From Minisyncoccota bacterium (GTDB lineage Bacteria; Patescibacteriota; Minisyncoccia; Phycocordibacterales; UBA6065), in the NCBI GenBank assembly GCA_035438745.1, contig DAORIX010000002.1, forward strand, positions 1,830 through 65,829: a DNA stretch of 64,000 bases, in the 5' to 3' direction. The translations under genes were made by a program, and so were the position numbers. Each line of letters starts with the position of its first letter. Position 1 is the stretch's first letter. Shown in pieces: positions 7,882 to 38,635 of the stretch. The notes beneath the pieces were generated by a model. It had not been told where the DNA came from, did no database searches, and was given only the letters and a program-made list of their open reading frames with translations.

Positions 7882-8682
7882 TTATTGTGGCAAAGCAAAT
7901 ATATCGACAAAGTTGATATCATTAATATTGAAAGGACTTTTAAAATAAACGGTCTGAATGGATTCAGCTGAATCAGTCTCCACATATTCAACAATACCCA
8001 GAATAGAGACATTGATAGATGGAGCTTTTATGACATCACCCTTCTCAACGAGTACATCAATAGGAAGCGAGAGTATGAAATTACCTCCTCCACGGCCAAT
8101 AGCGGTACCAGACACAGATCGTGGTCCAATAAGCACAAGAGTTTCTTTACCTGGAGATGAGTAGAGTTCAACTTTTGATAGCGAATTTTCAACTTCAACA
8201 ATATCACCCATGAGGACTTGTCCTGGACCGTACACCTTGTCTCCAATCGACACCCCCTGTCTCAAACCCGCATCGAGAATGAGAGAGTCGTACGGAGAAA
8301 ATGGCGGGCGTCTGAGGACGACACCTAAAACACGAGAAACACCTTCTGATCTACCCAAGAGCTCCTTAAACTCTTCATTTTGTGCGACAACTTCAGCTAA
8401 ATACAGACGCTCAGAAGCAAAACGCTCACGCTCAAGAAGGAGCGCTTCGTTTTCTTTCACTAGAGATGACTTTGATTTCATTATTGCAAGAGCATTTTCA
8501 AAAGACCCTAATGCAAAAAATTCAAAACGCCATATCGGCGAAAAAACTTTTGACGTAATCGAAAAGAAAAAGTTGGGCGCAAGAATAAATCCAGATGCAA
8601 AAATAAACAACACAACAAAAGATACGAAAACATTGCGTCTCGCATTCGTTTTTGTACGGTTACTTGGTTGGAGGTAAGTCAT
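7882..8682 (-). CDS. mreC: Rod shape-determining protein MreC
   Basis: 266 aa with an N-terminal TM, a coiled coil and C-terminal beta domains. Its start overlaps the mreB stop. Confidence 0.8.
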   Translation of the reverse strand: MTYLQPSNRTKTNARRNVFVSFVVLFIFASGFILAPNFFFSITSKVFSPIWRFEFFALGSFENALAIMKSKSSLVKENEALLLERERFASERLYLAEVVAQNEEFKELLGRSEGVSRVLGVVLRRPPFSPYDSLILDAGLRQGVSIGDKVYGPGQVLMGDIVEVENSLSKVELYSSPGKETLVLIGPRSVSGTAIGRGGGNFILSLPIDVLVEKGDVIKAPSINVSILGIVEYVETDSAESIQTVYFKSPFNINDINFVDIFALPQ

Positions 8683-9724
8683 CTTCGCCTTGTATTAAAA
8701 TATCCCGATATTTACTAATGTCTTCAAGAATAATACCGGTACCTCGAGCAACAGCGGTGAGCGGATCTTCAGCAATATGAACAGGAATTTTAATATGTTC
8801 ACTGATGAGCTCATCGAGTCCTTTGATAAGCGCCCCTCCTCCTACGAGATAAACACCTCTGTGCATAACATCGGCTAGAATTTCTGGAGGAGTTGTTTCC
8901 AAAACCTCTCGAATTGACTCAACGAGGTGATCAATAGACTGTGATATTGCCTCTCGAATATCATCGTCAGTTACCACTACTTCACGAGGAAGACCTGTGA
9001 CGAGATCCCTACCGCGAATAGAAGCTTCGTGTGATTCACGTCCTGGCACAACAACACCAATCGCAATTTTCACTTGCTCAGCAGTTTTTTCTCCAATCAA
9101 AATCTTAAACTCGTTTCGAATATACGACATGATGTCGGAATTGAGTTTGTCGCCTGCTATCTTGAGACTTTTTGAGCGCACAGCACCACCGAGAGCGATA
9201 ACCGCAATGTCAGTAGTACCACCACCGATATCAATAACCATATTACCGACAGGTTCGTGAATAGGTAACCTAATACCAATAGCTGCCGCCATAGGCTGTT
9301 CAACAACATGCACCTCGCGAGCGCCAGCGTTTCGTGTAGCATCTCTCACAGCACGAGCCTCAACGTTTGTAACTCCCGAAGGAATACCTACAACAACACG
9401 AGGTCCAAAAAAAGTACGAGATTTTTTCTGTGCTTTATTCAAAAGGTAGACAATCATTTCCTCTGCAACTTCAAAGTCAGAAATAACACCGTCGACAAGC
9501 GGTCGCACAGCCACAATATGTCCCGGTGTCCTACCGAGCATTTCTTTTGCTTGTGTACCTACAGCAACTACACGACCAGTTTTCTGATTTACAGCTACAA
9601 CCGAAGGCTCGTTAATCACAATGCCTTGGCCGTTTACATAGACGAGCGTATTGGCAGTTCCCAAGTCGATGCCAATATCATTCGAAAACATTCGATACAG
9701 TTTTTCTAGAAAAGGTAGATTCAT
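8660..9724 (-). CDS. mreB: Rod shape-determining actin homolog MreB
   Basis: 354 aa with actin-fold phosphate motifs (IGIDLGTANTLVYV, VIDIGGGTTDIAV). Confidence 0.9.
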   Translation of the reverse strand: MNLPFLEKLYRMFSNDIGIDLGTANTLVYVNGQGIVINEPSVVAVNQKTGRVVAVGTQAKEMLGRTPGHIVAVRPLVDGVISDFEVAEEMIVYLLNKAQKKSRTFFGPRVVVGIPSGVTNVEARAVRDATRNAGAREVHVVEQPMAAAIGIRLPIHEPVGNMVIDIGGGTTDIAVIALGGAVRSKSLKIAGDKLNSDIMSYIRNEFKILIGEKTAEQVKIAIGVVVPGRESHEASIRGRDLVTGLPREVVVTDDDIREAISQSIDHLVESIREVLETTPPEILADVMHRGVYLVGGGALIKGLDELISEHIKIPVHIAEDPLTAVARGTGIILEDISKYRDILIQGEDDLPPTK

Positions 9725-13942: not shown

Positions 13943-14956
13943 TTACCTCTTGGCGATAATAGTCTTTTTGTATACGTCGAGATGGTCCATAGCAATACCT
14001 GTCCCCTTCACCACACAATAGAGAGGATCTTCGGCAAGCACGGCCTTTACTCCAGTGCGACGAAACACGAGCTCGGGGAGATTGCGCAACATTGATGAGC
14101 CTCCTGTCATAGTAATACCCTGATCAATAATATCTGCTGACAATTCTGGCGGAGTTTCTTGAAGTACGTCTTTGATAGCTTTGATCATATCTCGTAGCTC
14201 CCTACTAATCGCTTTTACAATTTCATTTGTTTTTATTTCTGTTGAACGAGGAAGACCTGAAATAAAATCACGGCCTTTAATAGTCATCACGAGCTCCTCT
14301 TCGAGAGGCACAGCAGAACCGATCTGCATTTTTATATCCTCAGCAGTCTTGTCTCCGATAGCGAGATTGAATGTTTTCTTTATATAGTCGGCGATAGCCG
14401 CGTCGATTTTGTTACCTGCGCATTTTACAGACGTAGACGACACGATTCCTCCGAGAGAAATAACCGCCACATCAGTAGTACCGCCTCCAATATCTACGAT
14501 CATGTGACCCTTTGCTTCATGAATAGGAATACCCGCACCAATAGCCGCGAGAATGGGCTCCTTTACGACGTATGCATTTTTTGCCCCTGCGTTAATGGCT
14601 GCCTCTACCACAGCGCGTCTCTCTGTTGAAGTGATGCCTGCGGGTACAGAGACGAGAACTTCTGGTTTCCACAAATTCCACTTACCGAGAGCTTTGTCGA
14701 TAAAGTATTTGAGCATCGCCTCAGTCACACGATAGTCGGCAATCACACCGTCCTTCATTGGTCGGTACGCAATGATTGATTCTGGAGTACGTCCAATCAT
14801 TGATTTTGCATCGAGTCCCACCGCCAAGATTTTGTTGTCTTGCTCAGAAACAGCCACAACAGAAGGTTCGTTGAGTACAATACCTTTGCCCGGTACAAAC
14901 ACGAGCGTGTTTGCGGTTCCCAAGTCGATTCCAAGTTTTTTAGTAAATAATGACAT
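13943..14956 (-). CDS. Second MreB-like actin homolog (MreB/Mbl paralog)
   Basis: 337 aa with LGIDLGTANTLVFV, VDIGGGTTDVAVI and related actin-fold motifs. It is clearly paralogous to the gene at 8660..9724. Confidence 0.85.
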   Translation of the reverse strand: MSLFTKKLGIDLGTANTLVFVPGKGIVLNEPSVVAVSEQDNKILAVGLDAKSMIGRTPESIIAYRPMKDGVIADYRVTEAMLKYFIDKALGKWNLWKPEVLVSVPAGITSTERRAVVEAAINAGAKNAYVVKEPILAAIGAGIPIHEAKGHMIVDIGGGTTDVAVISLGGIVSSTSVKCAGNKIDAAIADYIKKTFNLAIGDKTAEDIKMQIGSAVPLEEELVMTIKGRDFISGLPRSTEIKTNEIVKAISRELRDMIKAIKDVLQETPPELSADIIDQGITMTGGSSMLRNLPELVFRRTGVKAVLAEDPLYCVVKGTGIAMDHLDVYKKTIIAKR

Positions 14957-15103: not shown

Positions 15104-16639
15104 TTGCGTATGAAAAAAACAGAGGACACATTGATTGCTATAGGACACATGATTGCACGTTTGCGAGAAGACAGACGTATGACTCAGGCGGAGCTAGGAG
15201 AAAAAATCGGCACGACCCAGTCAGTTATTGCGCGCATCGAAAAAGGAGAACAAAACCTCTCTACTGAGTCCCTCTCAAAAATAAGTCAGGCACTCAACCA
15301 TGAAATACTCTCGCTCTCACGTGGAGGAACGGTCAATTTTCGTATAGAAGGTGGCAAAAAACTATCAGGATCAATACAAGTACGCACATCTAAAAATGGA
15401 GCGGTAGGAGTCATGTGTGCTTCCCTACTCAACAAAGGCAAGACGGTCATCAAAAATACTCCGAAAATCGAAGAGGTGTTTCGTATTATTGAAGTATTTG
15501 AATCAATAGGAGTAAAAATAGAATGGAAAGGAAATGATCTCCACATTACTCCACCAGAAACATTTTCTCTCAAAGATATTCACTACGAATCAGCTGCAAA
15601 AACACGCAGTGTCGTCATGATGATTGGTTCACTCATTCATCGAATGAAGAAATTTAACCTACCTCAAGCAAGCGGATGCAAATTGGGATCACGCACCATA
15701 AAACCCTACGTATACGCTCTCGAAAAACTTGGCGTCACCATTGAGACGAGCTCGCTGTATTACGAAGTTGAGCATCAAGGTCTCAAGAAAAATAGAGAAA
15801 TCATTATGTATGAGGCAGGTGACACAGTAACTGAGGCAGTACTCATGGCATCAGCACTCATACCAGGAACAACAGTGATTAAATTTGCCTCAGCAAACTA
15901 TCAGGTACAGGACGTATGTTTCTACCTCGAGCTTCTCGGTGTACGTATCGAAGGCATAGGCACATCGACACTCACCGTACACGGCCTCGACACCAGCGTA
16001 CAAAAAGATGTTGAGTACTTCTTGTCCGAAGACCCTATCGAAGCAATGTCTCTCATCACCATAGCGATAGTAACGAATTCATCGATAGTCATCGAGAGAT
16101 GCCCTATTGATTTTCTCGAACTCGAACTTCTCAAACTTGAAAAAATGGGCTTCAAGTACAAAATACTCAAACGCTACAAAGCAGATAACGGCAAAACAAA
16201 CCTCGTCGATATAGAAACAAAACCTTCAAAACTCACTGCGCTCACAGAAAAAATACACGCACAACCGTACCCAGGAATAAATATGGACAATCTTCCCTTC
16301 TTTGCGGTCATTGGTACCCAAGCAGAAGGCGAAACATTTATTCACGATTGGGTATATGAAGAACGAGCGATTTACTACAAAGAACTCGATAAGCTTCGCG
16401 CAGATACTATCCTCGCCGATCCTCACCGTTTTTATGTAAAAGGCCCAACAAAACTCAAAGCTACGGAAATTGTTTGCCCACCAGCATTACGACCATCAGT
16501 AGTACTCATGATTGCTATGATGGGAGCGCAAGGTACTTCAGTACTCAGAAATGTCTACAATATTAACCGTGGATACGAAGACCTTGCCGAGCGACTCAAC
16601 AAAATAGGAGCACACATAGAAACATTCAGAGACCTCTAA
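15104..16639 (+). CDS. murA: XRE-family HTH domain fused to UDP-N-acetylglucosamine 1-carboxyvinyltransferase (MurA)
   Basis: 511 aa. The first ~75 aa form a classical HTH_3 (RMTQAELGEKIGTTQSVIARIEKGEQNLSTESLSKISQAL). The rest aligns to MurA along its length, including the catalytic Cys loop (ASGCKLGSRTI) and C-terminal INRGYEDLAERLNKIGAHIE. Confidence 0.8.
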   Translation: MRMKKTEDTLIAIGHMIARLREDRRMTQAELGEKIGTTQSVIARIEKGEQNLSTESLSKISQALNHEILSLSRGGTVNFRIEGGKKLSGSIQVRTSKNGAVGVMCASLLNKGKTVIKNTPKIEEVFRIIEVFESIGVKIEWKGNDLHITPPETFSLKDIHYESAAKTRSVVMMIGSLIHRMKKFNLPQASGCKLGSRTIKPYVYALEKLGVTIETSSLYYEVEHQGLKKNREIIMYEAGDTVTEAVLMASALIPGTTVIKFASANYQVQDVCFYLELLGVRIEGIGTSTLTVHGLDTSVQKDVEYFLSEDPIEAMSLITIAIVTNSSIVIERCPIDFLELELLKLEKMGFKYKILKRYKADNGKTNLVDIETKPSKLTALTEKIHAQPYPGINMDNLPFFAVIGTQAEGETFIHDWVYEERAIYYKELDKLRADTILADPHRFYVKGPTKLKATEIVCPPALRPSVVLMIAMMGAQGTSVLRNVYNINRGYEDLAERLNKIGAHIETFRDL

Positions 16640-16715: not shown

Positions 16716-18596
16716 ATGTTTCTCGTATCTGTCATACCTATCTCGCGGGGCATCGCAACAGATTCCCTATCGTATTTTTCAAAAGAAGCCCCAAAAGAAG
16801 GGTCTGTTGTCACTGTCCCTCTTCGGAAAAAAACGGCTCATGGACTTGTTATAAAAGTTTCTCCTGCCCAAGAGGCAAAATCAGAAATAAAAAACGCAGA
16901 CTTTGAACTCAAAAAAATAGAGGGTCGTTCGCGTACCATTTTTTCTCAATCATTTATCAAAACAGCTGAAGAGGCTGCAACGTATCACACAGGAACAATC
17001 GGTGGCGCGCTCTACGAAATAATCCCGAAAGCAATACTCACCCATCTCGACACAGTACTCGAGTGTACAGAGCCTCACTATGTCGCGAATATTCGACAGC
17101 ATTTTGTACTTCAAGAAAACGATGATGATCGATTTGCTCATTACAAAGGTATCGTGCGTGAAAAATTTGCAAAAAAACGCTCAGTGTTCTTGCTCATGCC
17201 TACAATCGAAGATCTCAAAAAAGGTAGAGCATATCTTGAAAAAGGTATTCAGGACTATACCTATGTTTTTCACAGCGACATGACGCAAAAAGAAACGGTT
17301 GATTTATGGAACAAGGCGCTTCGCGAAAAGCACCCTATTCTCATCATCGGCACGAGTATTTTTCTATCTCTACCACGCTCTGATATTGGGATGATTATTG
17401 TAGAAAAAGACAATTCACGTGGTTACAAAAATATTGGTAGACCCTTCCTCGATATGCGTTATGTTGCCGAGCGTTTAGCAAAAAACATAGGTGCAGATTT
17501 TCTGATTGGCGACTCATGTCTACGTGTTGAAACCATCGAGAGACACAACGAGGGAGATTTTGTCGAATTTGCTCCTCTGTCATTCCGCTCTCTCTCAACA
17601 GCAACCGACGAACTCATAGACATGAAAAAATATTCGGGTCGTGAAGATGGTTTTCGTGTACTATCTGATGAATTTATCAATCTCATCAAAACGAATAAAG
17701 AAAACAATGAACTGCTCTTTGTTTTCGCCGCGAGAAGGGGTGTCTCGCCTTCTACAGTCTGTTCTGATTGCGAGGATGTATTATCCTGTGCAAAGTGCAA
17801 TACACCACTTATCCTCCACGGAAAAGATGATTACCGTTTTTTCCTCTGTAATCATTGCGGAAAAAAATACGACGCAAAAACAACCTGCAAAAAATGTGGT
17901 AGCTGGCGTCTCAAGCCACTCGGTATAGGTAGTGAACTCGTCGAGGAAAAAATCAAAGAAATACTTCCTGATACAAAAATATTCCGTATTGATAAAACAG
18001 TCGCCACCACACACAAGAAAGCTGTTTCCATCGCTGAAAAATGGATGTCTTCTCCTGGAAGCATACTCATAGGTACCGAAATGGCGCTCACCTACATCGA
18101 CAAAAAAATCGACAACTGTGCTATAGCGACCCTCGACTCATACTTTTCAATACCGGATTTTCGTATAAGTGAAAAAATATTCTCTATCATTCTCAAAATG
18201 AGATCTCTTGCGCACAAAAGGTTCCTCCTGCAGACACGAAGGCCCGATGAAGCCCTCCTGTCCTACGCGTGGAAAGGAAATATGATTGACTTCTTTCGAG
18301 AAGAAATAATCTTGCGACGCGCACTCAACTTTCCGCCATTTTCAGTACTTGTTAAACTCTCTTCGAGTGGCACAAAAGAGCGTGTTACAGAAGACATGAA
18401 AACGATAAAAACACTATGTAGCGACTATGGCGTGGATGTCTTTCCTGCGTTTGTTTCACTCCCACGAGGACATGTGGGAATGCACGCACTCATCCGTATT
18501 GAAAAGAAAAGCTGGCCAGACAAAAAACTTATTCAAATACTTGAAACCCTACCCCAATCCTTTACGGTAAATATTGACCCTGAGAGCCTCCTCTAA
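16716..18596 (+). CDS. priA: PriA-like primosomal protein N' with degenerate ATPase motifs
   Basis: 626 aa with a 3'-DNA-binding N-terminal domain and a Cys4-Cys4 zinc-binding region (CSDCEDVLSCAKC...CNHCGKK...CKKCGS). The helicase core is collinear with PriA. The Walker A position reads QENDDDRFAHY instead of GxxGSGKT, and the DExH position reads IVEKDN. Confidence 0.7.
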   Translation: MFLVSVIPISRGIATDSLSYFSKEAPKEGSVVTVPLRKKTAHGLVIKVSPAQEAKSEIKNADFELKKIEGRSRTIFSQSFIKTAEEAATYHTGTIGGALYEIIPKAILTHLDTVLECTEPHYVANIRQHFVLQENDDDRFAHYKGIVREKFAKKRSVFLLMPTIEDLKKGRAYLEKGIQDYTYVFHSDMTQKETVDLWNKALREKHPILIIGTSIFLSLPRSDIGMIIVEKDNSRGYKNIGRPFLDMRYVAERLAKNIGADFLIGDSCLRVETIERHNEGDFVEFAPLSFRSLSTATDELIDMKKYSGREDGFRVLSDEFINLIKTNKENNELLFVFAARRGVSPSTVCSDCEDVLSCAKCNTPLILHGKDDYRFFLCNHCGKKYDAKTTCKKCGSWRLKPLGIGSELVEEKIKEILPDTKIFRIDKTVATTHKKAVSIAEKWMSSPGSILIGTEMALTYIDKKIDNCAIATLDSYFSIPDFRISEKIFSIILKMRSLAHKRFLLQTRRPDEALLSYAWKGNMIDFFREEIILRRALNFPPFSVLVKLSSSGTKERVTEDMKTIKTLCSDYGVDVFPAFVSLPRGHVGMHALIRIEKKSWPDKKLIQILETLPQSFTVNIDPESLL

Positions 18597-18638: not shown

Positions 18639-19169
18639 ATGGTACCTATCGTCCAAAAAGACAATCCTGTACTCAGAGCACAGGCAAAACCTGTACCCGT
18701 TGAAGATATAGGTTCAGTAAAAATTCAAAAAATACTTGCTGATATGAAGCAAGCTCTCGACTCTCAAGAAGACGGAGTAGCTTTGGCAGCGCCTCAAATC
18801 GGCGCATCTCTACGTATTTTTATTATTTCAGGAAAAGTTTTTGACCTTATCTCTGGAAAAGAAGAGTCTGATAAAAAAGGAGAATCTGATAATAAAGATA
18901 TTGTCTGCATAAACCCGGAAATAATAAAACTATCCAAGGTAAAAAAAGAAGTCGAGGAGGGATGCTTGTCTGTAAGATACCTCTATGGAAAAACTAAACG
19001 AGCGAAACAAGCAAAGATAAAAGCGTTTGATGAAAACGGGAGACCGTTTGAATTAGGAGGTTCAGGACTACTCGCTCAAATATTTCAACACGAAATTGAC
19101 CATCTCAACGGTATACTCTTTACCGACACCGCAACCGATGTGCACGATTTACCTCCAAAAAACCAATGA
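18639..19169 (+). CDS. def: Peptide deformylase
   Basis: 176 aa with the three PDF motifs (GVALAAPQIG, EGCLSV, QHEIDHLNG). Confidence 0.9.
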   Translation: MVPIVQKDNPVLRAQAKPVPVEDIGSVKIQKILADMKQALDSQEDGVALAAPQIGASLRIFIISGKVFDLISGKEESDKKGESDNKDIVCINPEIIKLSKVKKEVEEGCLSVRYLYGKTKRAKQAKIKAFDENGRPFELGGSGLLAQIFQHEIDHLNGILFTDTATDVHDLPPKNQ

Positions 19170-20017
19170 AGAAAAAAATAGCTTTTTTTGGAACATCGGA
19201 ATTTTCTGTTTTTATTCTTGAAGAACTCAAGAAACAAAACCTCCTTCCGAACCTGATTGTGACAATGCCAGACAAGCCACAAGGCAGAAAACTCCTCCTC
19301 ACCCCTCCTCCAGTAAAAATCTGGGCTGATAGAGAAGGCATCCCGACCCTACAGCCGTCCAGCATAAAATCTCCTGAATTCGAACGTACCCTCAAAGAAA
19401 AAGGAGGAGATGGATGGGATCTCTTTATTGTTGCGTCTTATGGAAAAATTATCCCTGACTCTATTCTTTTCATGCCAATAAAAAAGACGCTCAACGTACA
19501 TCCATCCCTCCTGCCCCTTTTGCGCGGAGCTGCACCTATCGAACGGTCAATTCTCGCTAATATGCAGGAAACAGGGGTCACTATCATGAGACTTGATGCC
19601 GAAATGGATCATGGACCAATCGTAAGCCAAGAAAAAGTAACCATTGAGCCGTGGCCACTAGACCGGATTGAACTTGAAAAAAAATTAGGCGCTGTCGGAG
19701 GAGCTCTTCTTGCAAAAACTATTCCGAAATGGCTTGAAGGCACCCTATCAGAAAAAGAACAAGATCATAGCAAGGCAACACACGCGCCAAAAGTGACTAA
19801 AGAAGAAGCGCTCATTGATATGCAAGCGGACGTATATCAAAACCTGCTCAAAATAAAAGCTTTTGCAGGCTGGCCAAAAGCGTATTTCCTCGAAAAAGGA
19901 AAAAGAATAATCATTAACGACGCTACTATCGTAGACGGGAAACTTACTCTTCTACGAGTAACACCAGAAGGAAAACGAGAAATGTCTTGGAAAGATTACT
20001 CTCTTGGTAAAAACTAA
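19166..20017 (+). CDS. fmt: Methionyl-tRNA formyltransferase
   Basis: 283 aa. Its start overlaps the def stop. It carries the formyltransferase core (NVHPSLLPLLRGAAPIERSI) and a C-terminal Fmt domain. Confidence 0.85.
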   Translation: MKKKIAFFGTSEFSVFILEELKKQNLLPNLIVTMPDKPQGRKLLLTPPPVKIWADREGIPTLQPSSIKSPEFERTLKEKGGDGWDLFIVASYGKIIPDSILFMPIKKTLNVHPSLLPLLRGAAPIERSILANMQETGVTIMRLDAEMDHGPIVSQEKVTIEPWPLDRIELEKKLGAVGGALLAKTIPKWLEGTLSEKEQDHSKATHAPKVTKEEALIDMQADVYQNLLKIKAFAGWPKAYFLEKGKRIIINDATIVDGKLTLLRVTPEGKREMSWKDYSLGKN

Positions 20018-27173: not shown

Positions 27174-30100
27174 TTATTTTATTCCAGTTATTCTCTTGAA
27201 ATTATTAACGAACGTCTCAACTTCCTTCTGTGAAATATTAAGGTAATTAGCTGCATTCTTGTTTGAAGGAGAGATGCCCCGAATCGCATTACCAGAACGA
27301 CCTACTGAATTGGCAACATCTTGCCCTATTTGCTCTAGCCCTCTGACCGTATTATATGAATTTGTTGAGTGTATAAGTCGTGCAGGTCCATATCCTTGCT
27401 CATTCATGTGATGAGTACGGTCTCTTTTTATTACATTTTTCTCGGGGATACTCTTACCACTTGTCCTTCCTGTATAAATTATATCGTCTTTCATTTTCGC
27501 ATATATTTCAAAACTTTTTTCAGCGACATTATCAACCTTATTTACAACCTTCGTAGTTCTCGCGACCACACCCACACCAGTTACTCCTGGTATTACCGCT
27601 CCAGCAACATCAAGGCTCAGATAGTTAAGTTCGGTGCGCACGTCTCCACCTGTAGCCATGGCTTCTCCAACTCTATACAAGTCATAGGCAATGAAACCAA
27701 TGTCAGCAATCGTATCAATTATTCTTCCGCTCGGATCTTTCAGTGTAACCGGATTATCACCCGCGTAAGCATATGAGTTCTGTAGTTGTGGGCTAGTAAG
27801 TACCCCCATACCATCATTAGTTAATCCAACTTCCCAAAACACCGGATCCTGTGAGAGGAATTGTCCACGAGCTCCCTCATAATATCGTGCATTCAGATAC
27901 GAGAGGTTATTTCCCTCATTCTCAAACTGCCCGATGAAACCACGATTTGAGTCTGTGCCATCTTCGACTCTCATAGATCCATACGGCATGTAATCCTTCT
28001 CTAGAATAACATCACCTGCCTCATTTGTTACAACATTTGTACTCTCTAAGTGGTCTGGGTGTACATAGTATGTTTTAGCTGTACCTGATGGGCTACCACT
28101 TACAATCGGTCTCTCTACATAGGCTATCAGAGTGTCTCCTGCCCAGATATATGAGGTTGAGGTGCCTGTTTGATATGTAGAGTCAGTATATTCGGCTGAG
28201 TAAAACTTATTTGGATAATGATGAACCTTGCTACCCACTGTTTCCGACATTCTGGCCATTGTGTGGTCGTATGTGTAGGCGGTAGTTGTACCTGTGGTTG
28301 TGGCTGATACGAGACGATTTAGGAAGTCCCAAGTATATGTAGTTGTGGCAGAACTAAAGATTGAAGAAGTAAGGTTACCATTGTTGTCATAGGTATACGT
28401 TGTTGATGCAGTTCCATCAAAATACTCGGAAGGAGCATGAGGATTGAGGTAACCTGAACCTGAATAGAGATAGAGAGACGAAGGTGCTGATTGGCTCACA
28501 GCAACATCAGTGGAGAATGTGGCACCGTTATTGTTCGTTAGATGATTTGCGTTTCCACTCGAATCTTGACCATTGCTATCGAGCTTCCACCAACCCTGAA
28601 GGCTGGAACCGTTTGAGAAATTATATGGATCACTGTAGAAGTTTCCGATTTCCGTTGATGTAAGCTTTCGAGACCATATACGAACATCATCCATGAGACC
28701 ATCGACATAGTATGTCGACACAGAATCAGTTTCCAACATCGCACCGATCGCTAATTTTCTAGCGCTATTATACAAACTTGTCACACTTCCTGTTTGCGTA
28801 CCCTGAGACACACCGTTAATCCATAGTTCGCCTACACTACCGGACCCTGTCCAAGTAAAGACTACATGCGTCCATGCACCTGTAGGAATAGTGCTCCCTA
28901 GTGTCCACGCGAGAGTTTCTTCATATGCGCCACTGCTCGATGGACGGAAGAACATCATGTGGGTACCACCAGCGTTGTACATATAGAGTTTATAAGACTC
29001 TTGGCTCGCATCTCCTTTGTGCACAAGGGTTTGTATCGTTCCGTTGTCAAAAGACTCAGGTTTTATCCATGCAGAAAAAGTGAGAACTGTACTCATGTCG
29101 AGACCTGTCTGAGAAGCATCTGCAATAGACCAAAACTGACTCGAACTTAATTCAAGGTCCGTTGAACGGAAGTTATCCTCTACTTGGTTTGAGAGAATTT
29201 TTTCTTTGAGATTTCCAATTTTGTTATATGAGTACAACTCTCTGAAAGAGACCGAGCTTGTGGCTGTTGTTGAAGCAGAGACAAGACGTGACAAGTCGTC
29301 GTACGCATAATTAACCTTGCGTGCTAGAGATGACGTTGCGGCCTCGATTATCGAAGTAATATTTCCAACAGAATCATAATAGTAGAGGATGTCTTGTAGT
29401 CGAGTGCCGTTTGCATTTGGGAAAGGATCCTCTATAGGGGGCAGTCCTGTATGCTCGATTACAAGTTTCGGATCCTCTGTCGTTCCCGTGGTATCAGCGA
29501 AAACAGTTTCAGCGTTGTATGATCTGTGATCACGCCAACCCGGACTGGTATTATCCAAATCAAGCCCGATACGAAGACCTAACCACGTATTACCAGATTT
29601 ATTTATATTTCCAAGTCCTGTTGAATTGAAGGGAAAATTATAATATTGTCTTGTTGAAATTGTGTTAATCGCTATCTCGGTATTTGACTGTCTGACACTA
29701 TCCCAGTTTGCAATATTATAATCATTATTCACAATAGCGTTTGAGCTTGCAGGACCATCGTGCTTATCAACCACAACTTTAAAGTCACCAGGATTTGTTC
29801 CTCCGCCCATTCCTGAATGCATAGTAACGCTTAATGTGGCAGATAAAATCATATCACTGTCGATGAGTGACGTGTTAAAACCAAATATGTTTCGTACTAA
29901 ATTTTGAAAATAGTAGTCAGCCACACGGATACCTACTTCACCCCCTGCACATGTATCACAAGAAATAACACCGTTTGAATCATGCGCCGAAGCCCAATCA
30001 CCAGAGCCATTCCAATACGCCATACCATCGACAGGTGATGCCTGACCTGCTGCTGAGTAAAAAGTACTCACTGTTTTTCCTTTTTTCCCTTTTATAATCC

Positions 30101-33100
30101 GCTCCGGACCGTGAATATTTTTCATCACAGAGAGATTATGTTCTATGACCTGCAATAGAGCCTCTCGAGGGTCTTCACGAAGGGTACGGACGTATTGTTT
30201 CTCCTCACCGGTAGATACATCTGTCTGCGTCCACTCTTGTCTAATGGTTCCACGCTCATCAGGCACAAGTATAGGAGGATTAAAGATGCGGAAACGCTCC
30301 ATGTCGACTGTACCATCAACACCAAACCCTATTCGTTTTCCTTTACTATCCCAAGCTCGAACAAAAACCTGAACACCACCCTCTATTGGCTCAACAGAAA
30401 CTATCTCAAATGTATAGTCCTTACGTTTCTCACGAACACCGCGAACAGCCTTTGCAATCTCCTCACCTTTAATGTTCGCACGTTTATAAGAACCCTTACC
30501 TTCAAGCAAAGCTCGGATCGAACCAGGCTCTGCAGGTGTAACGGAAAGTATTTTTTCAACAACTTTTGACTCAGTTCTCAAACGTGCTTCCGATGTACTA
30601 GCTGTGGTACTTGCTACCACAGGAACTATAAGAGGTTCAATTGGGACAATTGTTTTGTCATCAGAAACGACTTCATCTTGCGTCTCTACATCTGTTTCAA
30701 GTTCAGGTGGAGCGTCTTTAGGAATAAGCGCTTCCTCTGGAGTGACAGGCTCAGAAATCTCATTTGGAGAACTTTCATCAGAAGTTTTCTCTGTTTCTTG
30801 TGTAGAAACTTCGTCAGCAGAAACAGCGGGCTCGACTTGTGATGATTCAGGTGTTGGATTTGAAACATCTTCATTCGAAGGATTTTCTATCTCCTGAGCA
30901 TATACACTAGGAGCAAATAAAACTTGAGTAATTTCCTTGAGGCGTGATAATGCAAAATGAGACTTACTAGACGATTCACTTAGAGTCAAACCGCTTGTAT
31001 AAGTTGTGAGAATATTCACGAGGCGATACAGCGCATTAGAGTCATACGCATAATGTGTCTCGATACCATTAGCAAACTTTTTTGCCGCAAGTTTACCGTG
31101 TGGACCATAGTTAAGATCGGTGACGATCGGATTTCCTGCATGAGCAACAGAGTCGATTGTTCCAGCATTGTTATAGTTATAACCCTGAGTGACCCCGTTC
31201 GGAAGCGTAACCGTAAGCGGAGAGCCACGTCTATCGTAGGTATAACTCGTCGTATAAGTCTTATTCCCAATCTTTTTAGCTTCGCTATCAACATTACCTA
31301 AAATATCATAATCAAAAGTAGTCTGTGCAGAGGTACTCGACGCAACACAAAGACGACCGACTCCGTTGTCGCAACTATCATAGGTATATGTGTGCTCTGT
31401 GCCACTAGCTCCAGTATAATTTTCTGTGAGTTTGCGATTCAATGCGTCATAAGAATTTACTATGTTCTGAGCCTTAGGATCAGTACTAGATGCCAAATTT
31501 CCAAAAAGGTCATATGCATAGTTCCAAACCCCATAAGTGGAATCTCCTGATGCGTGTAGGTCTTGGGCGGTCGTGCGACGAGAAAGTCCATCATATGAGA
31601 ATGAACGAGTGTTACCAAGCGAATCGGTCATTCCCACTAAATTGTTGAGCGCATCGTGGGTATAACTCGTCGTATAGGTTTCTTCATCATTGTACTCAAC
31701 AACCGATGAAACATTACCGTAGGCATCTTTCTGTATGTCTTTTGGAACACCATTAGCGTCAGTTACCTTAACCTGCCAAGGGGTATACGCATACGTGGTG
31801 GTTCCAATAGATGTGGCAATCGATACAGGACGCTGCAAGGCATCATATGTGTAATTGGTATAAAGTGAAGATACATGAGTAGGAGAAGTACGCGCTGAAG
31901 TAGATGCAAAATACGGAAGGGACTCCTTCGCAAGTAAACCTGCACTACCGTAAACATAACTTTTAACTGAGTATCGATTGGTCATTTCTGCCTGAGAACG
32001 CTCCTGAATGACACGACCAAGACCATCACGATAAGTGTATACGTCTGTCGTGCTCGCGCTCGTTAAATATGTGCGAGTACGAGTGCTAGCTGGAAATGTA
32101 TCCGTATAAACATAATCTCGTAACACCTCAGTCAGAAGAGGGAATGAAGGATTAGTTTGGCGTTCCTCTTGTACTCGTCCAAGCGGTTCAAATACTGTTC
32201 TACGAACGGTACCGTTTTCATCTTCAACCCTTATTGGCTTGCCCACCATATAGTCATATTCATAATCAGTACCTTGGCTCAAAGCATTCGTAACAGTTTC
32301 TGGGTACAAATTAAATGAGTCATATGAATACGTCGTCGTATTGCTTCGGGGATCAGTCTCCGATGTGACTAATCCATATGAGTTATATGCTTTCGTCGTG
32401 CTTGAATAGTCACTTCCACTGATCCATTTTTCTTCTTTCGTTAAGTTGCCCTTGACCGCAGTACCAAGGGACTGAGTGTCGTAATACAAACGAGTAAGTG
32501 CAACAGATGTTCCTGAGTTGTCTTTGACCTCTTTCGTTGTAGGAAGAGTAAGATTTTTGCTTGTAGTTGCACTATAAGTAATAATCGTGGTACGTGTATC
32601 AGAACCAGTATTGCTATACGTTCCGTCAGACGATCCAGTCACTTCTCCCCTCTCAATTGACTGGAGAAGGTTGCCGGTTGTTGTTGAATAGGAGTATTCC
32701 GTCGCACGATCTTTGTGAGTTGATCCGCCTTCAAAATCCTGGACCGAGTCCGATGCAAGTCGTGTAAACCAATATGCGGGTGTAGGAGAAGATATAGTAC
32801 GACTTGGATTGAGCGCAATCACATTCTTGAGCATAGTTCCAGAGTTAGTACTCGAATATATGACGCTCTTCGCTCCAACGGCTCCGAGTCCCCCTCCGCT
32901 ATCCCAAGATTCTGTGTCTGAAGTCTGGATAAAAGCACCTGAGTTTACAGAATGGCTTCCTGCGGTTGATCCAAACACACCGACAAGCCATGCATTTGGA
33001 GTGTCGGTTGTGACTGTTGCTGTAACCGAAGTGCCTGAAATTCCACCCTCTGCATCGTACCAACCAAATGGATTTTCGGTATCAACACCTGAATACGAAA

Positions 33101-35873
33101 TTGCATGTGCTCCAAACCAGCCGTCTAACCCTCCTCGTGTCATCGTGAGGGTGTGAGTTCCCGTTGGAGGATTAAGTAAATACCACAAATTAACGTTTCG
33201 ATTGCTAGCCGCAGAAGCGCCAGCTCCAACCGGTGTCAGTGCAATACCATTATAAGTAACACCACTAACAAAGAGTCCGCCCTGAGAATCACCAATAACA
33301 AGGAGCATATTATCACTGCTACCTACCGTAAAACTATATGAATGAGACGAACCAGAAGCTACATTTGAAAACTGCGACGAGCCTCGAGCGATGTCAGTTG
33401 TACTGGTACTCGTCGTTGCACTTGTTATGTATTGGTCACTTGAATAAACATAGAATGATTTTTTGAGCGTTGTTGAGGCCATGCTCACAACATCTTCACG
33501 ATATTTTTTTCCAATGAGTGCAAATCCGTCAAGAAGCTCTCCTACGCTTGTCGAGGCCGTGTTGCCTTGATGGTAATAACTCTGTGTTGATCCGAGGCCA
33601 TCAAATCGATTGATTTTTGCAAACCCAGCAAATCGTCTATCTCTAGTGTTTGAAGGATTCAAATAAATTCTGCCACCCTCATACGTGTATGAGTAAGATT
33701 GTGAACCGCCAAAACCATCATTGTCTGTTAATTTTGTGACAACTAAAATTGAAAAAGGTAAGTCGGGATTCTGACTAGCCATTTGAGCCGAAAACTGATA
33801 TTCAATTTGAGTATTTCCTCCCGTACTTAAGCGACGGAATGTGAGCATGTCAGCCTTAGCTGTGCCACCCGAAGATACTGTGCTTTTTGTACTAGCGCTG
33901 TCGGGGATACCGTCTCCATTCCAATCAACGAGCTCGTTGTAATCTACACGTCCTGTCCATTGGCCTCCCGAAACCACCCCATTAAAGATATACTCTGGTA
34001 CCGTGAGAGATGATGTTGCGAATCCACCGCCCGTGTTTAGGTATACGTAATTGTAGCTTCCTGTTTGAATGTCTGTCACACCACTTGCCTTGGTTGAATA
34101 GGACGGCATATTGTATGACCTAATGTAGTCGAGGAGACCGTCACCATTCATATCTATGAATCGAATGCCTTTGTCCCAACCACCTGTCTGACGCACACCT
34201 GTGTTAATGGTCCATCTCGTATCAACAGAACCCCAACTAGATCCATTGTTAAGATAGAATTTGGTTGAACTTGCATCTGAGTACATCCAGTCGTCGAGGC
34301 CGTCTCCGTTAACGTCCACGAGTTGTGACATTGAAACGTCGGTTGCTGTGGTCGGCATTGCCGCAATAGGCGCAAAAGAACTTTTCACTCGCCAACCGTT
34401 CTCCAAACCACTATTGAGATAACTTCCATTAGCGGCACAGATTGTCGTTGTCGCCACATAATCAACAAGCCAGTCGCCGTTAAGATTTCCAAATAATCCC
34501 GTTGCAACACTCTCAGAACCATTCGCGCAACTAAAGAGTGGTAAACGAGATGGGGTTGCAGTGCTTGTCCAAGTGAAAGGAGCGGTGTTCTCGTAGTATC
34601 CTCGAGTAATAACACCACTTGAGTCACGATAGCTTCGTGCAATGTCTGCCTTACCATCCCCATTGAAATCAACGAGGCGGACACCGCGTTCTACGTATGG
34701 AAAATCATTTGATCCTCCGAGCCCAGAGTTGTCGTAGCTCCAAAATTCAGAAGAGACCGCCTGATTATATTGGGGAAAGTTGGGAAATTCATTCTCGTCT
34801 ACGATTCTGTGTGCGCTCGATGTTCCACTATTGCTCCAGAAGACTGCCTTATCAGGCAAACCATTACCATCCACATCGGCAACCATACGAGCACTGTTCC
34901 AAATCCGAGGATTGGTTGATGATGCGTATGTCGGTGTTGAAGTAGAGTATCCAAACGTAACAGCAGGCAAAGCGGCAGTATTACCGTCACTATCCCTTCC
35001 AGTTTCAATGGCTGAAATAAGAAGAGAGCGTGAACCATTGCTTCCACTTAAATAACCAAGAGTATACTTTCTTCTCCATTCATCATTTATGGATGCTTTT
35101 ACTTCTGTAAGACGCTTTGTTGTATTTACCCAAAATCCCGTTTCGTATGAAGTATAAACATCTGGACGTGTTTCGTAAGTGAAATCAACTTCAAATGGAC
35201 CGTCCGTTGTTCCGTTTCCGGTGTACGTAATTTTGGATGGGTAAATCTGATTACCGTCCTTTGTATATTCGAATTTTATGAAGTTGTCATTAGTATCTCG
35301 CACCTCCTCAAGCATCCAGCGATAAACATTATCAGGACTTGTCGTTGCCGACTGCCTAGACGCAGTGGTTGTACCGAAAGAGTATCGTGTGCCGCTTTTA
35401 TCAAATACGGTCCAAACGTTGTTTTGAAGACGGTAGGTAATAAAATTGCCATCCTCAAAGCGATGGCGATATCCTCCATTATTGTCCGATGGAACAAGTT
35501 CACCACCAAGAGATGAGGTAAAGTAGTTATCAATGTAGAGACGATCGGTTCCTATCTGATTCATGCGTGTGATAGACGGAATCGATAACTTCCAACCATA
35601 ACCATAAGGACTCTCACTTAAATCTTGACTGTTGTATGTAAGAGCAAGGTCTGGAGTAAGTCCCTTTCTTCCAGGTGGAACCTTAAACGAAATACTATCT
35701 GTGTATGCACCTTGATTTAAATCGACTCTCACTCTTCCAACACTAGCGCTAACAATATCTTCTCGCTCTTTTGCGTCCACAAGAGAGGGAGGAATAAGAC
35801 TGAGAACAAGATTACACAACACAAAAAGAACGATCGCTCGTCCACATCTGCGCAACGCTACAGTTGAGTACAT
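27174..35873 (-). CDS. Giant secreted RHS/YD-repeat polymorphic toxin, TcB-TcC (BC-fusion)-like
   Basis: 2899-aa uninterrupted ORF with a signal peptide and an SpvB/TcaC N-terminal motif (ISFKVPPGRKGLTPDLALTYNSQ). It has at least five FG-GAP-like calcium-binding repeats (VDVNGDGLPD, DFNGDGKAD, DVNGDGLDD, DMNGDGLLD, DWNGDGIPD). It has many YD repeats and a Glu/Pro/Ser-rich linker. It has a LamG/ConA-like jelly-roll (LTFSAWIKP ... ELWINGVSQG). The RHS core ends NPVTLKDPSGR at ~27723..27755. A unique 182-aa C-terminal domain follows. Confidence 0.85.
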   Translation of the reverse strand: MYSTVALRRCGRAIVLFVLCNLVLSLIPPSLVDAKEREDIVSASVGRVRVDLNQGAYTDSISFKVPPGRKGLTPDLALTYNSQDLSESPYGYGWKLSIPSITRMNQIGTDRLYIDNYFTSSLGGELVPSDNNGGYRHRFEDGNFITYRLQNNVWTVFDKSGTRYSFGTTTASRQSATTSPDNVYRWMLEEVRDTNDNFIKFEYTKDGNQIYPSKITYTGNGTTDGPFEVDFTYETRPDVYTSYETGFWVNTTKRLTEVKASINDEWRRKYTLGYLSGSNGSRSLLISAIETGRDSDGNTAALPAVTFGYSTSTPTYASSTNPRIWNSARMVADVDGNGLPDKAVFWSNSGTSSAHRIVDENEFPNFPQYNQAVSSEFWSYDNSGLGGSNDFPYVERGVRLVDFNGDGKADIARSYRDSSGVITRGYYENTAPFTWTSTATPSRLPLFSCANGSESVATGLFGNLNGDWLVDYVATTTICAANGSYLNSGLENGWRVKSSFAPIAAMPTTATDVSMSQLVDVNGDGLDDWMYSDASSTKFYLNNGSSWGSVDTRWTINTGVRQTGGWDKGIRFIDMNGDGLLDYIRSYNMPSYSTKASGVTDIQTGSYNYVYLNTGGGFATSSLTVPEYIFNGVVSGGQWTGRVDYNELVDWNGDGIPDSASTKSTVSSGGTAKADMLTFRRLSTGGNTQIEYQFSAQMASQNPDLPFSILVVTKLTDNDGFGGSQSYSYTYEGGRIYLNPSNTRDRRFAGFAKINRFDGLGSTQSYYHQGNTASTSVGELLDGFALIGKKYREDVVSMASTTLKKSFYVYSSDQYITSATTSTSTTDIARGSSQFSNVASGSSHSYSFTVGSSDNMLLVIGDSQGGLFVSGVTYNGIALTPVGAGASAASNRNVNLWYLLNPPTGTHTLTMTRGGLDGWFGAHAISYSGVDTENPFGWYDAEGGISGTSVTATVTTDTPNAWLVGVFGSTAGSHSVNSGAFIQTSDTESWDSGGGLGAVGAKSVIYSSTNSGTMLKNVIALNPSRTISSPTPAYWFTRLASDSVQDFEGGSTHKDRATEYSYSTTTGNLLQSIERGEVTGSSDGTYSNTGSDTRTTIITYSATTSKNLTLPTTKEVKDNSGTSVALTRLYYDTQSLGTAVKGNLTKEEKWISGSDYSSTTKAYNSYGLVTSETDPRSNTTTYSYDSFNLYPETVTNALSQGTDYEYDYMVGKPIRVEDENGTVRRTVFEPLGRVQEERQTNPSFPLLTEVLRDYVYTDTFPASTRTRTYLTSASTTDVYTYRDGLGRVIQERSQAEMTNRYSVKSYVYGSAGLLAKESLPYFASTSARTSPTHVSSLYTNYTYDALQRPVSIATSIGTTTYAYTPWQVKVTDANGVPKDIQKDAYGNVSSVVEYNDEETYTTSYTHDALNNLVGMTDSLGNTRSFSYDGLSRRTTAQDLHASGDSTYGVWNYAYDLFGNLASSTDPKAQNIVNSYDALNRKLTENYTGASGTEHTYTYDSCDNGVGRLCVASSTSAQTTFDYDILGNVDSEAKKIGNKTYTTSYTYDRRGSPLTVTLPNGVTQGYNYNNAGTIDSVAHAGNPIVTDLNYGPHGKLAAKKFANGIETHYAYDSNALYRLVNILTTYTSGLTLSESSSKSHFALSRLKEITQVLFAPSVYAQEIENPSNEDVSNPTPESSQVEPAVSADEVSTQETEKTSDESSPNEISEPVTPEEALIPKDAPPELETDVETQDEVVSDDKTIVPIEPLIVPVVASTTASTSEARLRTESKVVEKILSVTPAEPGSIRALLEGKGSYKRANIKGEEIAKAVRGVREKRKDYTFEIVSVEPIEGGVQVFVRAWDSKGKRIGFGVDGTVDMERFRIFNPPILVPDERGTIRQEWTQTDVSTGEEKQYVRTLREDPREALLQVIEHNLSVMKNIHGPERIIKGKKGKTVSTFYSAAGQASPVDGMAYWNGSGDWASAHDSNGVISCDTCAGGEVGIRVADYYFQNLVRNIFGFNTSLIDSDMILSATLSVTMHSGMGGGTNPGDFKVVVDKHDGPASSNAIVNNDYNIANWDSVRQSNTEIAINTISTRQYYNFPFNSTGLGNINKSGNTWLGLRIGLDLDNTSPGWRDHRSYNAETVFADTTGTTEDPKLVIEHTGLPPIEDPFPNANGTRLQDILYYYDSVGNITSIIEAATSSLARKVNYAYDDLSRLVSASTTATSSVSFRELYSYNKIGNLKEKILSNQVEDNFRSTDLELSSSQFWSIADASQTGLDMSTVLTFSAWIKPESFDNGTIQTLVHKGDASQESYKLYMYNAGGTHMMFFRPSSSGAYEETLAWTLGSTIPTGAWTHVVFTWTGSGSVGELWINGVSQGTQTGSVTSLYNSARKLAIGAMLETDSVSTYYVDGLMDDVRIWSRKLTSTEIGNFYSDPYNFSNGSSLQGWWKLDSNGQDSSGNANHLTNNNGATFSTDVAVSQSAPSSLYLYSGSGYLNPHAPSEYFDGTASTTYTYDNNGNLTSSIFSSATTTYTWDFLNRLVSATTTGTTTAYTYDHTMARMSETVGSKVHHYPNKFYSAEYTDSTYQTGTSTSYIWAGDTLIAYVERPIVSGSPSGTAKTYYVHPDHLESTNVVTNEAGDVILEKDYMPYGSMRVEDGTDSNRGFIGQFENEGNNLSYLNARYYEGARGQFLSQDPVFWEVGLTNDGMGVLTSPQLQNSYAYAGDNPVTLKDPSGRIIDTIADIGFIAYDLYRVGEAMATGGDVRTELNYLSLDVAGAVIPGVTGVGVVARTTKVVNKVDNVAEKSFEIYAKMKDDIIYTGRTSGKSIPEKNVIKRDRTHHMNEQGYGPARLIHSTNSYNTVRGLEQIGQDVANSVGRSGNAIRGISPSNKNAANYLNISQKEVETFVNNFKRITGIK

Positions 35874-36490: not shown

Positions 36491-37252
36491 ATGCTTGCTT
36501 TCATAGATGAGACTGGGGACCATAATTTAAACATGAAGACTGTTGATAATAACTACAATATTTTTGTATTGTCTCTGGTTCTCATTAGAAAAAAGGACTA
36601 TAAGAAGATAGACATGGGGTTTAAAAAGATAAAAAAAGATATATTTGGAGACGAGAACTTTATAATCCACACATGGGAATTAACACATCCAACGCACAGG
36701 AAATCAGACAAACGTAATGGAATAATGCGTGTCCATGAAAAAAGAGAAGAATTTTATAAAAAAATGAATGACTTTATCGAGTCGTCGTTAATAAAGACGT
36801 GCTTCACGGTAGTTAGAAAACTACATTTTGCTGGTAAATATGTATTTCCGTCGGATCCATATGAATTATCTTTTGAAAATCACCTAAACAGAATTTTACA
36901 CTACTCTAGTGGTGATGATATAAGTATTTATGCGGAATCTAGAGATGATGCTTTGGATAAGAGTCTTTTAGCAGAATATACTAAATATTCAATTAAAGGG
37001 GTATGTTTCCACGACTCAGAAAAAATGAAGAGAATAAAGGAATTCAATATAAAAAGCAAAAAAGAAAATATCACAGGACTTCAGATAGCAGATTTACTAG
37101 CAAGTCCAGTAGCAAGACATTTTTTAAATATTAAACCTAGACCAATAGGAAACGAAATACCTTATTCATTAGTAAGAAAAAAACTAGCAGGAAATATAAA
37201 GTTATCCATAACAATTATTCCAGATGATGCAGAGATTAACCTATTGAAATGA
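36491..37252 (+). CDS. DUF3800-family protein
   Basis: 253 aa. The N-terminal FIDETGD and later GLQIADLLA resemble the conserved IDESG and LQxAD motifs of DUF3800. Confidence 0.55.
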   Translation: MLAFIDETGDHNLNMKTVDNNYNIFVLSLVLIRKKDYKKIDMGFKKIKKDIFGDENFIIHTWELTHPTHRKSDKRNGIMRVHEKREEFYKKMNDFIESSLIKTCFTVVRKLHFAGKYVFPSDPYELSFENHLNRILHYSSGDDISIYAESRDDALDKSLLAEYTKYSIKGVCFHDSEKMKRIKEFNIKSKKENITGLQIADLLASPVARHFLNIKPRPIGNEIPYSLVRKKLAGNIKLSITIIPDDAEINLLK

Positions 37253-38271: not shown

Positions 38272-38635
38272 AGTAAAAGTTTTAATAAACCTTACCTGTG
38301 TATTGCATACAAAAAACCTGCCACAGGTAGAGGCCTAAGCCTCTCATACCGGTTTCCCGATATGGCGAGTTAAGCGACCCTATGACAGGCTCTTTATGCT
38401 TAACTCGACTTCTGACCATGCCACTGATGACTCAGTAGTTTAGGTACTTTTTCATATTCAATTGTCTCCTTCACTCTACCATCACTTCCCTCAAATACAA
38501 AAGAGTTTAAAAAAATGGGAGGGGGGGCAAAAATGCTAGCAAATGCAATCATGAAAATGATAGCATTTCGAAAACTTATTAGCCCACCTAAACTTACTTA
38601 AAAATATATGTATAATTGACCCATACAGAGCTGAA

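Follow-up and report, generated by a model that had tools for sequence, protein, structure and literature searches.

Background

Canonical PriA, as represented by the proteins of Escherichia coli and Klebsiella pneumoniae, the profile TIGR00595 and the PDB entries 4NL4, 6DGD and 8FAK, comprises a 3'-DNA-binding domain (3'BD), two RecA-like lobes, a cysteine-rich region (CRR) with four CxxC pairs in lobe 2 and a domain at the C terminus (CTD). In E. coli PriA, residues 109-181 form a winged-helix domain (PMC5778457). The structure of E. coli PriA with PriB and a fork shows that the fork is read by the pocket of the 3'BD, by a wedge loop of lobe 1 and by a pore of CRR, lobe 2 and CTD, and that PriB docks on the CRR residues D438, S481, T482 and H483 (PMC10175261). 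Here we analyse a priA-like gene (positions 16716-18596, plus strand, stop codon included; 626 amino acids) in a window of 64,000 nucleotides, the whole stretch of contig DAORIX010000002.1 from a Minisyncoccota bacterium that was studied. Its product reads as a PriA ortholog without ATPase motifs.

The substitution K230R in E. coli PriA (priA300) abolishes ATPase, helicase and translocase activity, while primosome assembly and PriA-PriB restart are supported; the PriA-PriC pathway still requires the helicase activity (PMC5778457). In PriA of Deinococcus radiodurans, Walker A and Walker B are degenerate, with arginine in place of the Walker lysine. The protein shows neither ATPase nor helicase activity and binds single-stranded DNA (ssDNA), forks and DnaB (PMC4504706). 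Both a survey of 2015 covering 100 PriAs from 18 phyla (PMC4504706) and a review of 2017 (PMC5778457) present Deinococcus-Thermus as the exception. In the full-text literature on PriA and the primosome we found no description of PriA motif loss in the candidate phyla radiation (CPR), Patescibacteria or Parcubacteria, and a paper on Saccharibacteria genetics does not mention PriA.

An earlier note, made from the sequence of this stretch alone, had proposed a PriA homolog with ablated Walker A and DExH motifs. In this study, we show that the nucleotide-contacting motifs are replaced in this protein and throughout a large family of relatives which is under strong purifying selection. With a probability of about 0.75, we consider the gene product to be the sole PriA ortholog of this organism and to have become fixed as an obligate pseudohelicase, which would act as an ATP-independent scaffold for fork recognition and helicase recruitment.

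Homology to PriA

The open reading frame (ORF) starts with ATG, runs unbroken through 626 codons and contains no Ns. Searched with phmmer against PDB sequences, its product matched only PriA of K. pneumoniae and E. coli (E 3e-32 to 3e-29, residues 143-547); identity to canonical PriA is 18-24%. Fourteen NCBIfam models of PriA match, led by NF004066 (E 7e-67) and TIGR00595 (E 4e-65), and the only Pfam model above its cutoff is PriA_3primeBD (PF17764; 29 bits, cutoff 22.7). Comparison of the family profile with E. coli PriA by hhalign gave a probability of 99.9 over 583 columns (residues 17-618 on E. coli 15-721). The register of the motifs discussed below is supported by three independent alignments, made with phmmer, with MAFFT (E. 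coli PriA taken from NC_000913) and with hhalign.

An AlphaFold2 (AF2) model built from 36 family sequences has a predicted local distance difference test score (pLDDT) of 87.2 and a predicted template modelling score (pTM) of 0.86, and predicts a superfamily 2 (SF2) core of two RecA-like lobes in the PriA-specific topology. When the model was compared with the PDB by Foldseek, PriA structures took all nine top ranks (E 1e-38 to 2e-29, template modelling (TM) score 0.70-0.78). Mfd follows as the first other match, with E 6e-9 and a TM score of about 0.4. Mfd, RecG-type and other SF2 translocases share the two RecA-like lobes but not the arrangement of 3'BD, CRR and CTD, and an assignment to an Mfd- or RecG-type family was rejected on an E-value some 30 orders of magnitude weaker than that of PriA. 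Sequence, profiles (TIGR00595, PF17764) and predicted fold thus confirm a clear PriA homolog, in agreement with the earlier note. A defence or phage origin of the protein was likewise rejected, as PADLOC and PHROGs scans gave no matches.

Loss of the nucleotide-contacting motifs

At the site of the Walker A motif or P-loop, where E. coli PriA reads GVTGSGKTEVY, the MAFFT alignment places QENDDDRFAHY (aa 133-143; 17112-17144, plus strand). In an ungapped register anchored on tyrosine (E. coli Y234 = Y143), the Walker lysine K230 is matched by R139, and the P-loop positions G227, S228 and G229 are all occupied by aspartate. Since strand 129-133 of the AF2 model runs almost directly into helix 136-152, no glycine-rich loop is left. 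The Walker B motif or DEEH box, VIDEEH in E. coli (VIDEEHD with the following residue), is represented by IVEKDN (aa 228-233; IVEKDNS, 228-234; 17397-17414, plus strand). Hereby E. coli D319-E320-E321-H322 corresponds to E230-K231-D232-N233 and the catalytic glutamate E320 to Lys231. Both replacement segments had been read correctly in the earlier note.

Two further motifs are affected. Motif III, GSATPA in E. coli, has become GDSCLR in the MAFFT alignments (SAT to DSC; 17508-17525, plus strand). At the former motif VI, KMRSLAHKRFLLQTR (18195-18239, plus strand), GRAGR has been removed by a deletion of five residues (QVAGRAGR to KM-----R). When this segment is anchored on the conserved LQT in the MAFFT alignment, R496 falls on R587 of E. 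coli motif VI and may be its counterpart.

A pattern scan for GxxxxGK[ST] found no P-loop anywhere in the 626 residues, and the realignments agree, which disposes of the possibility that intact motifs lie elsewhere in the protein. Motifs I, II, III and VI, which are intact in canonical PriA, are all degenerate here. ATP binding and hydrolysis, and DNA unwinding, have in all likelihood been lost. As K230R alone suffices to kill the ATPase and helicase of E. coli PriA (PMC5778457), it is sound to conclude that the window protein has no motor activity.

Motif loss and selection across the family

A word-indexed protein search returned 802 relatives. Among the matches listed, 119 were full-length (45-100% identity), and none of the 119 had a Walker A motif at the homologous site of the MAFFT alignment. 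An exhaustive HMMER search of representatives at 50% identity added at least 150 more (35-46% identity), again without a Walker A motif in any of the 148 that were aligned. The motifs are likewise missing in about 100 further relatives listed by a third search, which was started from P0189, the most basal-looking member. In the pooled set of 373 full-length relatives (33-100% identity), neither the P-loop at its homologous site nor GRxGR occurs even once, and no motif-intact relative was found among the best matches listed, down to 33-35% identity. Patterns for intact motifs elsewhere in the 373 proteins (GxxxxGK[ST], DE[EAC]H, GRxGR) gave chance matches at non-homologous positions only, such as FARGKS and LDEEHP. 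The comparison of orthologs envisaged in the earlier note thus extends the loss of Walker A to all 373 full-length relatives.

The residues that stand at the Walker A site are themselves conserved. In 341 anchored sequences they follow the pattern Q(94%)-x-x-[DE]-[DE]-[DE]-R(97%)-hydrophobic-x-x-Y(89%), and at the site of the catalytic glutamate the family has Lys, Arg or His instead of Glu. The sole exception at Walker B is a cluster around P0246 (P0246 and P0271-P0274), which keeps ILDEEHS and reads QAGDDDRDAAY at Walker A. Because this cluster has DEEH without a Walker A motif, the order of events suggested is loss of the P-loop first and drift of Walker B later, unless the cluster has reverted.

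An independently assembled metagenome-assembled genome (MAG) contains, on a contig which we call L002, a protein 98% identical to that of the window, with identical motif segments. Between the two genes there are 196 nucleotide differences; 186 of these are synonymous and 10 nonsynonymous, with lobe 1 free of the latter. The synonymous divergence dS is 0.66 and the nonsynonymous divergence dN 0.007, so that dN/dS comes to about 0.01. Outside the replaced motifs, purifying selection on the protein is very strong. Over 365 sequences, the mean frequency of the top residue is 0.575-0.58 in the helicase lobes (0.575 in lobe 1), 0.595 in the CRR, 0.516 in the 3'BD and 0.507 in the CTD; the lobes are conserved like the CRR and more than the 3'BD or CTD. 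Since the L002 protein has the same motif segments and all 373 relatives share the loss, a sequencing error, which the earlier note had left open as a source of the divergent segment, is refuted.

Retained DNA-binding and scaffold parts

Next to these losses, the complete PriA domain set can be recognised, in the same order and with the same fold. The 3'BD (aa 1-105; 16716-17030, plus strand) is the part detected by PF17764, and hhalign places its residues 17-105 on E. coli 15-105; the N-terminal DNA-binding domain noticed before is thus retained. RecA-like lobe 1 (aa 125-300; 17088-17615, plus strand) keeps its fold according to AF2 and Foldseek and has lost its catalytic residues; 22 of its columns are conserved at 90% or more. 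It includes, after motif II, a counterpart of the aromatic and basic wedge loop of PriA, YKNIGRPFLDMRYV (17424-17465, plus strand), identified by MAFFT and by its conservation (Y237, K238, R242, P243, D246 and R248). The role of this loop in E. coli has been described (PMC10175261, PMC5778457).

The motifs that contact DNA are kept in both lobes. Motif Ia reads LMPTI (E. coli VMVPEI) and motif Ib IGTS (E. coli IGTRS). In lobe 2 (aa 301-545; 17616-18350, plus strand), motif IV is FAARRG (R340, G342; E. coli FLNRRG), motif V is IGTEM (T454, E455; E. coli IGTQM), and LQT is recognisable as well. Inserted in lobe 2 is the CRR (17751-17912, plus strand), whose four CxxC pairs correspond to two zinc sites. 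As the earlier note had stated, the zinc-binding cysteines are retained, all eight of them (C349/352, C358/361, C378/381 and C391/394), and 359 of the 373 full-length relatives have the four pairs. The surface equivalent to the PriB dock of E. coli (D438/S481/T482/H483) consists of D351/S396/W397/R398. D351 and W397 are conserved in at least 95% of the family, in which GSWRL stands for E. coli GSTHL. The CTD (aa 546-626; 18351-18593, plus strand) follows, where the hhalign alignment reaches E. coli residue 721 of 732; several relatives carry a precomputed annotation of PF18074 (PriA_C).

Compared with canonical PriA, the window protein thus shares domain order, fold, motifs Ia, Ib, IV and V and the wedge loop, and differs by the lack of motifs I, II, III and VI and of the winged helix and by the replaced residues of the PriB dock.

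Proposed role and alternative explanations

From conservation and precedent we infer DNA binding and helicase recruitment as the role of this protein, in line with the fork-binding or loader-recruiting protein without a motor suggested in the earlier note. Abandoned forks and D-loops would still be recognised without ATP. The 3'BD would take the nascent leading strand at its 3' end, the wedge loop of lobe 1 would sit at the fork junction, and CRR, lobe 2 and CTD would hold the ssDNA of the lagging strand. The bound protein would then be a platform recruiting the replicative helicase DnaB, either directly, as reported for D. radiodurans PriA, or via a partner on the CRR surface (D351, S396, W397). 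Any unwinding that a fork needs would fall to other helicases; alternatively, restart would be confined to forks whose lagging arm is already single-stranded.

Several points weigh against the scaffold reading. The score of 220.4 bits under TIGR00595 stays below the priA equivalog cutoff of 230.35; the first profile position aligned is 17, which lies past Walker A. In the hhalign register, the 3'-end pocket residues of E. coli, D17, Y18, G37 and K61 (PMC5778457), correspond to S19, Y20, R37 and K59, so that the tyrosine and lysine are kept and D17 and G37 are changed to Ser and Arg; Y20 and L18 are conserved in at least 95% of the family. The winged-helix domain has no counterpart. A linker of about 20 residues (aa 106-124; 17031-17087, plus strand), the least conserved region of the protein (0.275), stands in its position opposite an hhalign gap of about 100 residues. 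The collinearity with PriA claimed in the earlier note therefore holds for the 3'BD, the helicase lobes and the CRR and breaks at the winged helix. With the pocket changed and without this domain, which in E. coli contacts the parental duplex, fork specificity may differ. An E. coli construct with the winged helix deleted (6dcr) is among the best Foldseek matches, and the NCBIfam PriA model NF004069 (612 positions) aligns with residues 13-574 in a single continuous stretch. The latter suggests that short PriA forms exist and that the winged helix may not be a universal feature of PriA. Finally, the search for further PriA homologs covered the window and related loci totalling about 0.9 Mb, and a second intact priA may lie elsewhere in the genome; and the loss of ATPase activity is deduced from sequence, the binding of forks and the recruitment of DnaB from conservation and precedent.

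The missing winged helix and the two changed pocket residues could also mean that the PriA scaffold has changed its job and serves, instead of restart, as a sensor or adaptor of DNA structure in recombination or replication initiation, or as a factor binding SSB or DnaB. A CRR partner surface with family-specific invariant residues, W397 in place of E. coli T482 among them, fits such a change, as does the narrow distribution of the E. coli partners PriB and DnaT (PMC4504706). We regard it as unlikely, given the complete PriA domain set with its DNA-contacting motifs, the position of the apparently single-copy gene in a housekeeping block, and the studied pseudohelicase PriA of D. radiodurans, which keeps fork and DnaB binding. 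Nor do we expect a neofunctionalised paralog beside a canonical, motif-intact PriA in the same genome, even though the score under the equivalog cutoff would suit it. A phmmer search with E. coli PriA gave a single PriA homolog among the window's ORFs and likewise one per locus in 80 related loci; within these sequences there is hence no second intact priA of the kind the earlier note had asked about. Bacteria normally carry one priA. The conserved position between murA and def-fmt and the small genomes of this group (681,747 bp in the complete chromosome of a relative) speak against this explanation as well and make it improbable.

Could the protein still be an active ATPase or translocase which binds nucleotide at a second site or through non-canonical residues? 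In favour are the strong conservation of the RecA-like lobes, an invariant arginine at the position of the Walker lysine, an arginine of motif VI that is possibly kept, and a second, weaker nucleotide site proposed for PriA (PMC5778457). On the other side, the glycine-rich loop is missing and the phosphate cradle is occupied by three acidic residues; a basic residue stands for the catalytic glutamate, SAT has disappeared, GRAGR is deleted, and in E. coli PriA the single change K230R already kills the ATPase (PMC5778457). Residual activity is accordingly very improbable. Hardly worth entertaining is the idea that the gene is decaying into a pseudogene or that assembly or sequencing has produced an artefact; for this, nothing more than the degenerate motifs themselves can be adduced. 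This explanation is refuted by the loss throughout the family, by replacement motifs which are common to 373 full-length relatives and themselves conserved, and by dN/dS of 0.01 against an independent assembly 98% identical in protein sequence; moreover, the reading frame of 626 codons is unbroken.

Beyond the scaffold role of the single gene product, a wider proposal can be put forward tentatively, and we hold it to be possible rather than probable. Much of the Parcubacteria/Paceibacteria, and possibly more of the CPR, may combine ATP-independent PriA restart with a latch at the former P-loop and a tryptophan-bearing CRR dock. Speculatively, the latch would consist of Q-x-x-[DE]3-R, the basic residue at the site of the catalytic glutamate and the motif VI arginine, and would fix both RecA lobes in one conformation, as a nucleotide mimic or by a salt bridge. 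The family-specific CRR surface with its tryptophan would dock DnaB itself or an adaptor other than PriB. If true, this would amount to a distinct, motor-free restart mechanism across a sizeable share of bacterial diversity and would overturn the view of a PriA helicase activity conserved "except in Deinococcus".

Comparison with other helicase-dead PriA proteins

The concept of a PriA pseudohelicase has already been published for Deinococcus-Thermus (PMC4504706). The window protein shares with that case its descent from PriA, degenerate Walker A and B motifs that are incompatible with ATP hydrolysis (here R139, 97% conserved, and E-K-D-N) and an arginine at the position of the Walker lysine. 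By analogy, it too may be expected to bind DNA and recruit the helicase while having no ATPase activity. The Deinococcus protein has biochemical data behind it; the window protein is characterised here by its sequence and a predicted model. Concerning the extent of the loss, the published description of the Deinococcus case mentions poor matches to motifs I and II and the change from lysine to arginine; in the window protein acidic residues replace the whole glycine-rich loop, motif III is lost and motif VI deleted. Since the phyla and the replacement motifs differ, the losses in Parcubacteria and Deinococcus-Thermus were probably independent. The Parcubacteria case is new, with a more species-rich lineage, a more complete ablation and no winged helix; after Deinococcus it is the second lineage with a pseudohelicase PriA, much larger and apparently of independent origin.

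The E. coli proteins with K230R (priA300), K230A or K230D, which are helicase-dead, still build primosomes and sustain restart through PriA-PriB (PMC5778457), can be seen as a laboratory analogue of the window protein. Each of them differs from an otherwise intact enzyme by one engineered substitution, and they rely on PriB and DnaT, neither of which is expected in the Parcubacteria lineage. The total loss of the motifs under strong purifying selection supports the view that the essential ancestral job of PriA lies in recognising forks by their structure and recruiting the helicase, rather than in unwinding. The family would provide a natural separation-of-function protein for studying the hand-over of DnaB from PriA to the fork in bacteria which are taken to be without PriB, DnaT and DnaC.

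Distribution, annotation and gene neighbourhood

Two family-specific peptides traced relatives to at least 437 species-representative genomes of GTDB, and clustering at 50% identity divides the family into more than 150 groups. Named carriers are Candidatus Taylorbacteria, Paceibacterota, Parcubacteria and Minisyncoccia and, further out, Vogelbacteria, Nomurabacteria and Zambryskibacteria, all of which belong to the Parcubacteria group of Patescibacteria/CPR. The complete chromosome mentioned above fits the reduced genome supposed in the earlier note. Many carrier MAG records are titled "uncultured Candidatus Saccharibacteria bacterium" (e.g. L002, L006 and L007), and one "Victivallales". As the named close relatives are Paceibacterota, Parcubacteria and Taylorbacteria, we treated the Saccharibacteria titles as generic; these titles, like the Victivallales one, look like generic or wrong labels.

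Many orthologs are labelled "hypothetical protein" at NCBI, because the curated PriA models narrowly miss them, and primosomal protein N' at JGI. Surveys of pathway completeness in CPR may therefore wrongly score replication restart or PriA as missing.

The gene is embedded in a conserved block, frr-holB-mreB on one side, murA-priA-def-fmt, and hpf beyond. Within 6 kb of priA in the 80 related loci (about 0.9 Mb in total), murA was found in 65, mreB in 64, def in 53, fmt in 51 and holB in 51. In the window, a murA-like gene (15104-16639, plus strand) lies upstream, def for peptide deformylase (18639-19169, plus strand) directly downstream, and fmt for methionyl-tRNA formyltransferase (19166-20017, plus strand) behind it, followed by ppiB and hpf. 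The wider block on the minus strand comprises mraZ-rsmH and a penicillin-binding protein (PBP) gene, lysS, greA, PBP2-mreC-mreB, a class II aminoacyl-tRNA synthetase gene, an rseP-like gene for an M50 protease, frr, holB and mreB. The GC content is even across the block, at about 0.41-0.43.

The murA-like protein, of the EPSP_synthase fold, carries a fused N-terminal helix-turn-helix (HTH) domain of the XRE type (Pfam HTH_3, E 7e-13, residues 17-65), which joins a DNA-binding domain to an enzyme, and the same fusion is present in 42 of the 65 MurA-like ORFs beside priA in the related loci. Two mreB paralogs (8660-9724 and 13943-14956, both on the minus strand; MreB_Mbl E 2e-138 and 6e-135) are accompanied in this CPR genome by mreC and two PBP genes.

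Other features of the window

A stretch of low GC content at 36-40 kb (0.34-0.36) holds a LOOT RNA (Rfam RF03000) at 38329-38446 on the minus strand (87 bits, gathering score 46.4), a DUF3800 gene (36491-37252) and a gene for a large serine recombinase (40157-41761), and is probably an integrated mobile element. Adjoining the 3' end of the recombinase gene on the opposite strand is a match to the group I intron (RF00028) at 41748-42020 (minus strand), which at 51.7 bits barely exceeds the gathering score of 50. An ORF for an HNH endonuclease (41888-42289) overlaps this match on its 5' side; no tRNA or rRNA gene that could be its host was detected in the 64-kb window.

On the minus strand, the window further contains two giant ORFs, 27174-35873 (2899 aa) and 54337-63828 (3163 aa). 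Adjacent paralogous ORFs of about 725 aa lie at 49378-51567 and 51614-53779. All four likely encode cell-surface proteins, and the one covered by the domain scan, 49378-51567, carries concanavalin-like Laminin_G_3 repeats.

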